Shown here: piece by piece, positions 9,856-11,345 of the stretch
Layout: each line of letters begins with the position of its first letter
Position numbering within the stretch: the stretch's first letter is position 1
DNA from: an uncultured Spirochaetota bacterium
GTDB taxonomy: Bacteria; Spirochaetota; Spirochaetia; SZUA-6; Fen-1364
Direction: 5' to 3'
Assembly: GCA_963781885.1 (NCBI GenBank)
Contig: CAWAHW010000006.1
Location: 64,001-128,000 of the forward strand
Length of the DNA stretch: 64,000 nucleotides
The notes under the pieces: generated by a model
What the model was told of the DNA's origin: nothing
What the model saw: the letters and a program-made list of their open reading frames with translations, nothing else
The model's database searches: none
Position numbers and translations under genes: made by a program

Positions 9856-11226
9856 ACTCCTCCCGCCGCGGCGGGCGCGGCGGCGCGGTCTGCATTCCTG
9901 ATCTCGGCAGTCCCGGCGTACTTCCAGTACAGCGGGCAGGCGGCCTGGCAGGCCGTGAAGCTTTTGCAGCCTGCGCACTCCGCCGGCGCGTATTCCTTGT
10001 TCTTGAAATATCGCGCGCGGGGGGAAAACCAGACGTCGCGGAAGCCTTGTGCCAGGAGATTTCCCATCGGCTCGGGGTAGGACGAGCACGGCAGGACATC
10101 CCCTGCCGGCGACACCGAGAGAAGACCGTCCATGGCGGCGCAGGACTTGTTGCCCAGGCCGCGCGCGATTGTGTTGTAGTGGCAGTGGGGGATGGGCGAA
10201 TACCAATAGAAGACGAGCCCTTCCGCGTGGGCGGCCGCGCGCGCGCTGTCGATGATCGCACCGGCGCGGGAGTAGGGGATGAAAAGCTCATCCGCGCGCG
10301 CGTTGCGGGCGGCGGGAAGGTAGAGGTTCATCGCGAACCGGGAGACGCCGAGGCTTTTGAGGAAGGCGGGCATGGCCGGGGCGTCGGGTGCATTTGCCGC
10401 GGTGACGGTGGTGTTCGTCTGCACCGAGATGCCCGCTGCCTGGAGGCAGCGTATACCCGCCAGGGTCGCATCGAATGAACCGGGCCGGGCGGTGAGGGCG
10501 TCGTGGGTGGCAGCGGTGGTGCCTTCGACGCTCACCTGCGCCGTGCGGAGGCCCGCCTTGGAGAGGCCGCGCGCGCGCCGCGCGTCGGCAAGGGTGCCGT
10601 TGGTGATGAGATTGACGCGCAGCCCGCGCCTGTCGGCGAACCGGATCATGTCCTCAAGGTCGCGGCGGAGGAGCGGCTCGCCGCCCGTGAAGGAGAAGAA
10701 GGGGATCTTCGCGTCGTCCTTGAAGACGCGGATGATGCGCGTGATCTCGGCGAGGCTCATCTCCCTGCCCGGCCGAGAGGTCGCGCGGGGTGGGGGTGCC
10801 GCATCCCGGGAGGTGCGTCCCGCATCCCTGGAGATGCGTCCCGCATCCGGCGTAGCAGAATGCGCAGGCGTTGTTGCATCGATAGGTGACGGCGATCTCC
10901 CCGAGTATGGGAAGCGTGGTGAACTGGAAGTCGTAGGGCACCGTCTCATACGGAGCGCGGCCGTCCGCGGCGGGCTCGCCGAGCGAGAGGGCGCGCAGAT
11001 CAGAGACGAATGCGGCCACCTGCTGTGCGCGTTCGGGATCCGCGATCCCGGGAATGCCTGCCACCTTGCCGCCGGCCAGCATGTGACGGACGATTGCGAT
11101 GCCGGTGGCATTTGCCTTGTAGACCTGGTTGGGCGGCAGGATGATCACGCCGTCCTCTTCCCGTGCGAAGATGTGCGGCCCGGACTCGCGGAAGAAATCG
11201 TCGATCCAGTCCAGCGGGACCGTCAA
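9852..11226 (-). CDS. Radical SAM/SPASM protein with N-terminal PqqD/RRE-like region; +1 frameshift near 10768-10770
   Basis: CNNACAFC (CxxxCxxC), FTGGEPLL, ITNGT, QVSVEG, SPASM cysteines (SCAA...VLPC...CAGC.....CQAAC); TTG start overlaps upstream stop; ~457 aa when repaired. Confidence 0.88.
10799..10848. repeat. 21-bp tandem repeat (2.4 copies) encoding GCGTHL(Q/P) after the rSAM motif
   Basis: ccgcatcccgggaggtgcgtc / ccgcatccctggagatgcgtc / ccgcatcc. Confidence 0.85.
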
Positions 11227-11345
11227 TGAGCCCCTCCGGAGACACAGGCAGAGTGGCACGCGGAATGACAGGCCGAGTGGCACGCCGAGTGACAGGCGTG
11301 ATGGCATGCCGAATGGCATGCGTTGTGGCAGGCCGAATAGCAGGC
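11223..11345 (-). repeat. 12-bp coding repeat, 9 x Ala-Cys-His-Ser type
   Basis: synonymous codon variation between units (gcc/gca/gcg, tgc/tgt, cac/cat, tcg/tcc/tct). Confidence 0.95.

Follow-up and report, generated by a model that had tools for sequence, protein, structure and literature searches.

Few worked examples exist in which enzymes form thioether or other radical cross-links in full-size proteins instead of short secreted peptides (QhpC, and CrpA, published in September 2026). In Methanococcus voltae, CrpC, an enzyme composed of a RiPP recognition element (RRE; RiPP, ribosomally synthesized and posttranslationally modified peptide), a radical S-adenosylmethionine (rSAM) domain and a SPASM domain, puts ranthionine cross-links on CrpA, a large Cys-repeat protein in which the modified motifs are CAGM, CAVD, PCAGD and CPLVL; QhpD/QhpC and PapB, which acts on CX3D repeats, are cited there as relatives (PMC13692751, 2026). 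Two further systems bear on the present work: the HXS system, in which HxsA, a His-Xaa-Ser repeat effector, is reportedly matured by rSAM enzymes (PMC13128918, 2026), and the pairing of LemA with DUF2207 proteins (PMC12631010). Here, we analyze a 64,000-nucleotide stretch (the window) from an uncultured Spirochaetota bacterium (GCA_963781885.1, contig CAWAHW010000006.1, positions 64,001 to 128,000), in which a divergent DUF2207-like membrane protein (the host) ends in a Cys-His repeat tail and is followed by a translationally coupled rSAM/SPASM gene. Our main conclusion is that the tail is most likely the substrate of this enzyme, in an undescribed spirochaete protein-modification system. Our literature searches found no description of this system, and the supplements of PMC13692751 (Supplemental Data set 1, RS-associated Cys-rich proteins) could list members of it.

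The Cys-His repeat tail

The tail lies at 11226..11345 on the minus strand, corresponding to residues 508-547 of the 547-residue host, with the stop codon at 11223..11225, so that 11223..11345 reads GCC TGC TAT TCG ... GGA GGG GCT CAT TGA, which is tail plus stop. It consists of nine ACHS-type tetrapeptides, of which the first is ACYS and the ninth ACVS, ends in GGAH, and contains 9 Cys, 9 His, 10 Ala and 7 Ser in 40 residues. A preliminary description of the locus had picked out precisely this repeat and its Gly-Gly-Ala-His end, as well as the varied synonymous codons of its units, and both observations were correct: codons are mixed within the tail for Ala (GCC/GCA/GCG), Cys (TGC/TGT), His (CAC/CAT) and Ser (TCG/TCC/TCT), and the tandem array of 12/24/36 bp that Tandem Repeats Finder (TRF) sees in the tail DNA has matches of just 65-79%. 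In a six-frame scan of the 4.64-Mb genome (7 contigs), there are 13 Cys-period-4 tracts of at least four units. Eleven of these are four-unit strings, largely in Arg/Ala-rich off-frames, and more than four units are found only in this tail and in one unrelated locus on the same contig. The tail is far beyond chance expectation. No Pfam or NCBIfam model matches it at its cut-off, the weak likeness of the last 85 residues to TIGR04117 ("Cys-Xaa-Xaa-Xaa repeat radical SAM target protein") reaching 14.5 bits (E 0.028) against a cut-off of 50, with 10.0 and 7.7 bits for two homologues (P0007 and P0001).

Conservation of the tail was assessed in two sets of loci, which are not independent, since some contigs occur in both. 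The first consists of the window's own genome and those of 40 relatives. Of these 41, 26 carry the host gene, including all 20 other genomes of the same genus. The tail is found in 25 of the 26 distinct relatives' loci, and the exception (L024) stops at a contig end. Nine units are present in 22 of these 25 tails, which gives 23 nine-unit tails from 23 species when the window's own is counted. These correspond to 23 distinct DNA sequences, in which the summed Nei-Gojobori proportions of synonymous and nonsynonymous differences are 0.725 (pS) and 0.018 (pN), a ratio of 0.025, and yet 35 of 40 residues are unchanged, among them every one of the nine Cys and of the nine Ala that open the units. 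That so many different DNAs encode so nearly the same peptide argues that selection acts on the tail peptide and not on the DNA, as the preliminary description had supposed from codon usage.

The second set consists of the best 80 of at least 540 stretches that encode relatives in a one-genome-per-species scan. They are nearly all from Spirochaetota (Treponemataceae, Treponema sp. metagenome-assembled genomes (MAGs), Rectinema subterraneum SURF-ANA1 and Breznakiellaceae), the other labels being three Myxococcota/Myxococcales and one Holophagaceae. The tail is seen in 77 of these 80 public loci, and the remaining three stop at a contig end. Overall, the alignment of homologues' tails, which the preliminary description had advised, finds the tail in every homologue whose C terminus lies on its contig; the refuting condition named there, loss of the tail or of its Cys periodicity in close homologues, does not hold. 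There are nine Cys in 72 of the 77 public tails, eight in three, ten in one and three in one, and His closes 71 of the tails, Arg the other 6. Across the nine-unit tails, 72 in all and with host bodies 38-77% identical, 31 of 40 positions are invariant, among them the Asn closing unit 2 and the Val in unit 9, while His follows Cys without exception in units 2-8. Such position-specific invariant residues indicate that the units are not interchangeable and that the whole tail is one defined element.

A word-indexed protein search returned 23 homologues, mostly from spirochaete MAGs, with complete tails of 4, 5, 5, 9 and 12 units; four entries are in the wrong repeat frame, and one is a 937-residue read-through fusion into the downstream rSAM. 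When 1.84 billion cluster representatives were searched with a profile, 501 matched at E<=0.001. Among the 146 proteins newly returned, 23 have a complete tail of the ACH(S/D/N/H) type, with 2-12 units and an end of the form ..AC(V)SG-x-x, and many of the others are fragments of less than 400 residues covering part of the profile. Within the phylum, the distribution is patchy: at E<=1e-20, matches occur in 9 of 301 genomes drawn evenly from it (a sample that includes the window's own), versus 26 of 41 close relatives.

These data bear directly on the possibility that the repeat is recent slippage or functionless low-complexity noise. Although the tandem array seen by TRF is what slippage would leave, the 23 distinct DNAs encode a near-identical peptide with pS near saturation and pN at 0.018, and copy number is nine in 72 of 77 species. 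We give this explanation practically no credence, and regard it as refuted by purifying selection and the fixed unit number.

A second Cys-period-4 region lies about 46.7 kb past the window's end (G000 contig C6, ~174,700-175,500; L031 6370..7450). It encodes 24 CxxxC-type units in one frame (CSSACSIGCTSNCRSNC...), followed by 7+4+4+8 in another frame, and is possibly one frameshifted gene. It adjoins a DNA methylase/Mrr-like gene, its surroundings contain large open reading frames (ORFs) without Pfam matches, and no rSAM was found among ORFs of at least 120 residues in the 14 kb of L031.

Upstream of the tail is a second conserved element, P-x-x-F-x-x-x-Y-x-x-F-M-x-S-x-x-C-F-x-G-C-F, at 11379..11444 on the minus strand (residues 475-496). 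It includes the CFKGC that the preliminary description had noticed just upstream of the repeat, which is at 11382..11396, 12 residues before the first unit. P475, Y482, F485, M486, S488, C491, F492 and C495 are nearly invariant (alignment A1), and the segment is retained in most of the 80 public loci. From its conservation, it is a candidate recognition, or "leader-like", element. Two other suggestions of the preliminary description are not supported. The terminal GG is an unlikely processing site, with only two residues beyond it, S-G-x-x-(H/R) itself conserved and no peptidase or exporter in the cassette. Nor are Cys and His likely to line one helix face, since on an α-helix a period of 4 shifts by ~40 degrees with each unit and so comes full circle after nine. 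AlphaFold2 draws the tail as a helix at a predicted local distance difference test score (pLDDT) of ~30-37, so the model says nothing on tail shape.

The coupled radical SAM enzyme

The gene downstream of the tail, at 9852..11226 on the minus strand, encodes an rSAM/SPASM protein whose N-terminal domain is RRE-like. The gene starts with a TTG (11226..11224 in the window) that arises from the last His codon of the host plus the stop codon (cATTGA, an overlap of -4), as it also does in 16 relatives. In six relatives in which the host ends in CAC, the rSAM instead starts with an ATG 2 nt past the stop. The last His codon of the host thus co-varies with the rSAM start in 22 of 22 intact loci, CAT-TGA going with TTG and CAC with ATG at +2. 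In the public loci, the rSAM is immediately downstream of the tail in all 76 that have at least 140 nt of downstream DNA.

In the window, the enzyme is split over two ORFs in different frames, and tblastn likewise matches it in two segments, one in frame 3 and one in frame 1. Of 24 relatives' loci, 21 have it in a single frame. An intact orthologue matches Radical_SAM (PF04055) with 87.8 bits and SPASM (PF13186) with 42.5 bits, and the second frame of the window matches them with 71.1 and 39.7. In an alignment of 20 orthologues, CNNACxFCYAGC, which contains the CxxxCxxC cluster motif, is invariant, and so are the Cys at C115, C119, C122, C126, C346, C360, C378, C415, C418, C424 and C428. Seven of these are in the SPASM region, where the eighth ligand expected after CX2CX5CX3C is not seen. 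On the strength of these sequence features, the enzyme is assigned to a Radical SAM/SPASM subfamily. It also contains a low-complexity insert after CNNACAFCYAGCG, in which TRF finds a 21-bp tandem repeat of 2.4 copies (10799..10848, minus strand) encoding GCGTHLQ/GCGTHLP. This insert, which follows the CxxxCxxC motif, is hypervariable and Gly/Cys-containing, and ranges from 0 to ~40 residues among orthologues.

The RRE-like assignment comes from structure prediction. In an AlphaFold2 model of the rSAM (mean pLDDT 76), three strands (E18-20, E25-28 and E32-35) and two helices (H38-48 and H62-80) precede the TIM-barrel core. Foldseek places RiPP maturases at the top, with SkfB first (E 4.7e-15), and aligns SuiB and CteB over 450-460 columns, N-terminal RRE domains included, with PqqE, BlsE, MoaA, anSME and viperins as further neighbors. 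RRE (PqqD-like) domains consist of a three-stranded sheet and three helices and bind the leader of the substrate, and the N-terminal domain is predicted to be of this type. In sequence, the enzyme is distant from anything solved, the nearest structure being the BlsE core (E 2.5e-19), with CteB at E 1.4e-5. It scores 88.6 bits against the TIGR04340 model for the rSAM of the ACGX system, which has a cut-off of 400, and no NCBIfam or Pfam model beyond generic Radical_SAM and SPASM matches it at cut-off. Prediction of a complex between an orthologous rSAM and host residues 470-557, run with no controls, returned a score of 0.00, which speaks neither for nor against binding. Elsewhere in the genome, a different rSAM (G000:C1:485370-486551) is the best match to TIGR04463, with 163 bits against a cut-off of 525.

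The membrane host and its cassette

The host gene, at 11223..12866 on the minus strand, starts with an ATG at 12866 (MKKRTLVV...) and encodes a signal peptide, a β-sandwich ectodomain (residues 23-228), a disordered linker, one transmembrane (TM) helix, a winged-helix/helical domain (residues ~338-465) and the tail. In its AlphaFold2 model (mean pLDDT 73), the β-sandwich is confident and a helix spans residues 274-298. This is the single TM helix, encoded at 11973..12047 on the minus strand and followed by KSRGYGRTMEK. On the Kyte-Doolittle scale, the N-terminal signal and the TM segment alone are clearly above 1.6, and the KR-rich flank is on the C-terminal side. With one TM helix and a Lys/Arg cluster on that side, the tail should be cytoplasmic and within reach of the rSAM. 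Foldseek with the host model finds generic β-sandwich matches only (M1 aminopeptidase N-domains and OST subunits) and offers no functional clue.

The DUF2207 label proposed in the preliminary description holds only loosely. Homologues P0001 and P0007 score 31.0 and 24.8 bits against the Pfam DUF2207 N-domain (PF09972), above the cut-off of 24.4, while P0008 (21.6) and the window protein itself (16.5 bits, E 0.0099, 34 residues aligned) fall below it. A whole-genome PF09972 search finds no canonical DUF2207 in the window's genome at E<=0.001, and LemA has no match over its cut-off there. The accompanying idea that the tail takes the place of a Gly-rich DUF2207 end is well founded. Canonical DUF2207 proteins were found in 9 of 61 genomes sampled from the phylum, and in all six complete ORFs the C terminus is a Gly run capped by W or R, while a seventh, which runs off a contig edge, has a visible Gly run. 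The host is without such an end, and (ACHS)9-GGAH occupies its position.

The composition and predicted location of the tail lend some appeal to the idea, metal or Fe-S binding having been raised in the preliminary description too, that it is left unmodified and serves as a Cys/His metal- or Fe-S-binding module (metallochaperone, store, sensor or electron relay), with the rSAM acting elsewhere or taking clusters or electrons from it. Nine Cys and nine His in 40 residues would suit this role, the strict nine units and position-specific residues suggest a defined stoichiometric site, and a cytoplasmic location favors reduced thiols. Ni/Zn chaperones with Cys/His-rich C-terminal tails are known. 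However, metal-binding tails usually vary in length and sequence, whereas pN/pS is 0.025 here, and a purely metal-binding role leaves unexplained why a maturase-type RRE-SPASM rSAM is coupled to the tail at every locus. We consider this explanation unlikely, while granting it real weight.

The host and the rSAM are the middle genes of a four-gene cassette, whose junctions in the window are ATGA, ATTGA and ATGA (gene 1/host/rSAM/gene 4). Gene 1 (12863..13498, minus strand) encodes a 211-residue membrane protein, hydrophobic in two segments near its N terminus and helical toward its C terminus; the stop codon of gene 1 overlaps the host ATG, and the gene immediately precedes the host in each of the 20 relatives' loci inspected. 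It has no Pfam match, and the ESM Atlas yields only a lead to clusters, 28-35% of which have PF10112. Gene 4 (8946..9855, minus strand) encodes a membrane protein of ~300 residues, and its ATG overlaps the rSAM stop. It is intact in L027 (301-residue ORF) and follows the rSAM in all 63 public loci with enough DNA, belongs to no known family and is placed by the ESM Atlas in orphan clusters only. The cassette contains no peptidase or exporter, and PADLOC finds no defense family among its four proteins, bar the viperin-like likeness of the rSAM core.

Compared with L027, the closest orthologous locus (85% DNA identity over 2.4 kb, a comparison that leaves out most of the host gene), an extra G near 10768-10770 breaks the rSAM frame in the window, and another near 9261 breaks the gene 4 frame. 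Cassettes with split genes also occur in two genomes of the same genus (L022 and L025). The public sequencing runs listed include one DNA run with 18% of words and no RNA run. Contigs from the DNA run cover 10769-10929 and other patches but span neither break site, the first being reached only from 10769 upward and ~9261 only by short loose-ended reads. The frame breaks are either assembly errors or real decay.

A 437-residue ORF (13786..15099, minus strand) with weak likeness to a DDE transposase (PF01609, 20.0 bits, cut-off 23) sits between the cassette and a glycosyltransferase-4 gene (15258..16331). In five matched relatives' loci, glycosyltransferase-4 is upstream of gene 1, at ~70-150 nt in L026, L027, L029 and L030, and at ~1.1 kb in L012. 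Because spacing is short in four of the five, the 437-residue ORF appears to have been inserted upstream of the operon. On the other side, a 237-residue ORF (8094..8807, minus strand) has no Pfam or NCBIfam match and is 91.5% identical in L027, where a 477-residue ORF (10128..11561) with no counterpart seen in the window separates it from the cassette.

Proposed modification and relation to known systems

A repeat core at the C terminus, a pre-tail segment, a coupled RRE-rSAM-SPASM enzyme and the lack of an exporter or peptidase together point to a RiPP-like modification of a resident protein. On balance, we lean toward the view that the coupled enzyme modifies Cys residues of the tail, and probably closes nine small thioether rings there. 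We propose that the host would be inserted with its β-sandwich on the outer side of the membrane, leaving the winged-helix domain and the tail in the cytoplasm. Ribosomes ending at the tail would restart on the rSAM gene, so that the enzyme would be made beside its substrate, and its RRE-like domain would dock onto the pre-tail segment or the cytoplasmic domain. The enzyme would then proceed through the nine A-C-x-x units, most likely bonding each Cys sulfur to a carbon within its own tetrapeptide (sactionine/ranthionine thioether, -2 Da each). We speculate that the product might be a rigid, protease-resistant rod showing a row of ~8 His, and that this rod might act, with the two other membrane proteins of the cassette, as a metal- or partner-binding module. 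A rigid His row beside the membrane is a guess at the tail's role. We propose a thioether outcome because this is the best-documented result for Cys-repeat substrates. The serial thioether stapling raised in the preliminary description was a reasonable guess, to which the RRE-rSAM-SPASM gene, translationally coupled to the tail and absent from that description, now gives a basis.

Several points weigh against this proposal. The pre-tail motif is absent from some distant tail-bearing homologues among the cluster representatives, and the Pfam PqqD/RRE models give no match on the rSAM N-terminal domain at E up to 10. The score against TIGR04463 (CrpC family, rSAM_vs_C_rich) is 29.9 bits for the window locus and 29.2 for the G005 orthologue, with a cut-off of 525. 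The acceptors of known ranthisynthases (Asp, Glu, Asn and Thr) are mostly missing from ACHS units, Asp occurring in some units in some species. The chemistry of the tail is proposed by analogy. If the frame breaks are real, the tail would be unmodified in this organism, with the host gene intact. Finally, the top NCBIfam scores of the enzyme are to tetrapyrrole enzymes instead of peptide maturases, AhbD with 128.8 of 500 bits and NirJ2 with 98.7, far under the cut-offs.

These last scores invite a haem-based interpretation, in which C-H-S-A-C-H would represent CX3CH haem-c-type motifs and an AhbD-like rSAM would help attach a tetrapyrrole to the tail. Each adjacent pair of Cys and the next His indeed reads CX3CH, unit 1 (ACYS) is without His after Cys, as the first Cys of a motif may be, AhbD is a haem b synthase, and the genome has one gene of the Cytochrom_C_asm family (142.9 bits). 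However, the match to AhbD is limited to positions 26-185 of 339, the generic rSAM core, the enzyme bears a predicted RRE-like peptide-binding domain, and nearly every Cys has a His after it, where one behind every second Cys would be expected. Haem c is attached outside the cytoplasm, while the tail is predicted to be cytoplasmic. This interpretation is thus very improbable, and we reject it in view of the odd number of Cys, the predicted cytoplasmic site and the failure to find ALAD/HemB in a genome that is 92.6% complete.

More pertinent is the question of whether the rSAM modifies the tail by chemistry other than thioether formation. Conversion of Cys to formylglycine, dehydroalanine-type oxidation, Cα epimerization, C-methylation, a Cys-His cross-link or a reaction at S-G-x-x-His would all qualify, and reactions of all these kinds are performed by SPASM enzymes. 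The enzyme is outside every characterized family, its structural neighbors include anSME, PqqE and SuiB alongside thioether formers, and the strictness of His after Cys in units 2-8 of the 72 tails exceeds what a spacer needs. Nothing positive supports any single alternative, however, and the outcomes known so far for Cys repeats, in the CrpA report and for the PapB and QhpD it cites, are thioethers (PMC13692751). We therefore see non-thioether chemistry as rather improbable, and keep thioether rings as the favored outcome.

If the proposed modification is right, the system would add a bacterial, membrane-anchored and cytoplasmic case to the few known, with a simple, rigidly conserved substrate of nine tetrapeptides that is attractive for enzymology in terms of processivity, acceptor chemistry and the His beside every Cys. 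The system is common, with at least 540 stretches encoding relatives (one genome per species), and testing in a cultured strain may be possible in Rectinema subterraneum SURF-ANA1 (L075), whose record is not labeled as a MAG. It would also give DUF2207, a large family whose function is opaque, a concrete biochemical hypothesis for its C-terminal tails. A bolder version, which we entertain only tentatively and hold to be doubtful, is an undescribed protein-level RiPP-like system in which an rSAM/SPASM family dedicated to this task, and produced when ribosomes restart at the end of the substrate's mRNA, turns the cytoplasmic (ACHS)9 of a DUF2207-like membrane protein into a fixed, nine-ring, His-lined structure, possibly via a new Cys-to-His/Ser/Ala linkage, as the working part of a membrane metal- or stress-sensing complex in hundreds of spirochaete species. 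This version would also offer a first mechanistic handle on the odd low-complexity tails of DUF2207 proteins.

Comparison with known systems highlights important similarities and differences. Like DUF2207 proteins, which are usually paired with LemA, the host has a signal peptide, a β-sandwich N-domain, a TM helix and a cytoplasmic part that ends in low-complexity sequence, and a gene for a small membrane protein lies just upstream, but the host has (ACHS)9 instead of a poly-Gly tail, with an rSAM and a fourth gene added. The HXS system reportedly also has a repeat-bearing protein, maturation by rSAM/SPASM and action at the envelope, whereas its repeat is HxS rather than ACHS and HxsC4 scores 83 of 500 bits on the enzyme. 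Closer in repeat architecture are TIGR04117 (Syntroph_Cxxx) and the ACGX system (TIGR04340), which likewise combine period-4 Cys repeats with predicted targeting by rSAM/SPASM, and ACGX and ACHS have a common A-C-x-x register. These Cys-repeat rSAM target families were reportedly introduced by Haft and Basu (J Bacteriol, 2011), and ACGX-family targets are small proteins or peptides. The present system differs in that its repeat is fused to a 500-residue membrane protein, and neither the tail (14.5 of 50 bits) nor the enzyme (88.6 of 400) belongs to those families. In PapA/PapB (freyrasin), SCIFF/CteB and QhpC/QhpD, serial Cys thioether rings are made by RRE-SPASM rSAM enzymes, in tandem CX3D rings in the case of PapA; QhpD resembles the enzyme described here in having a protein subunit as substrate, and CteB in aligning over the full length of the rSAM model. 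These enzymes, however, act on peptides that are secreted or on a subunit of a periplasmic enzyme, with Asp/Glu/Thr acceptors, while the present system lacks a leader-core peptide, an exporter and a peptidase and would need His, Ser or Ala as acceptors. CrpA/CrpC also has a full-size substrate with C-terminal Cys motifs and an RRE+rSAM+SPASM enzyme encoded alongside, and its modified motifs are four-residue C-x-x-x, such as CAGM. Nevertheless, CrpC belongs to another enzyme family (TIGR04463, ~30 versus 525 bits), the CrpA repeat unit is 17 residues rather than 4 (ACHS), the carriers are methanogens instead of Spirochaetota, and here the host is a DUF2207-like membrane protein with His after every Cys. 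An rSAM/SPASM maturase with a Cys-repeat target is therefore a known kind of system, but the present family is not a known one, since no model reaches its cut-off on the tail, the window host or the enzyme beyond generic domains.

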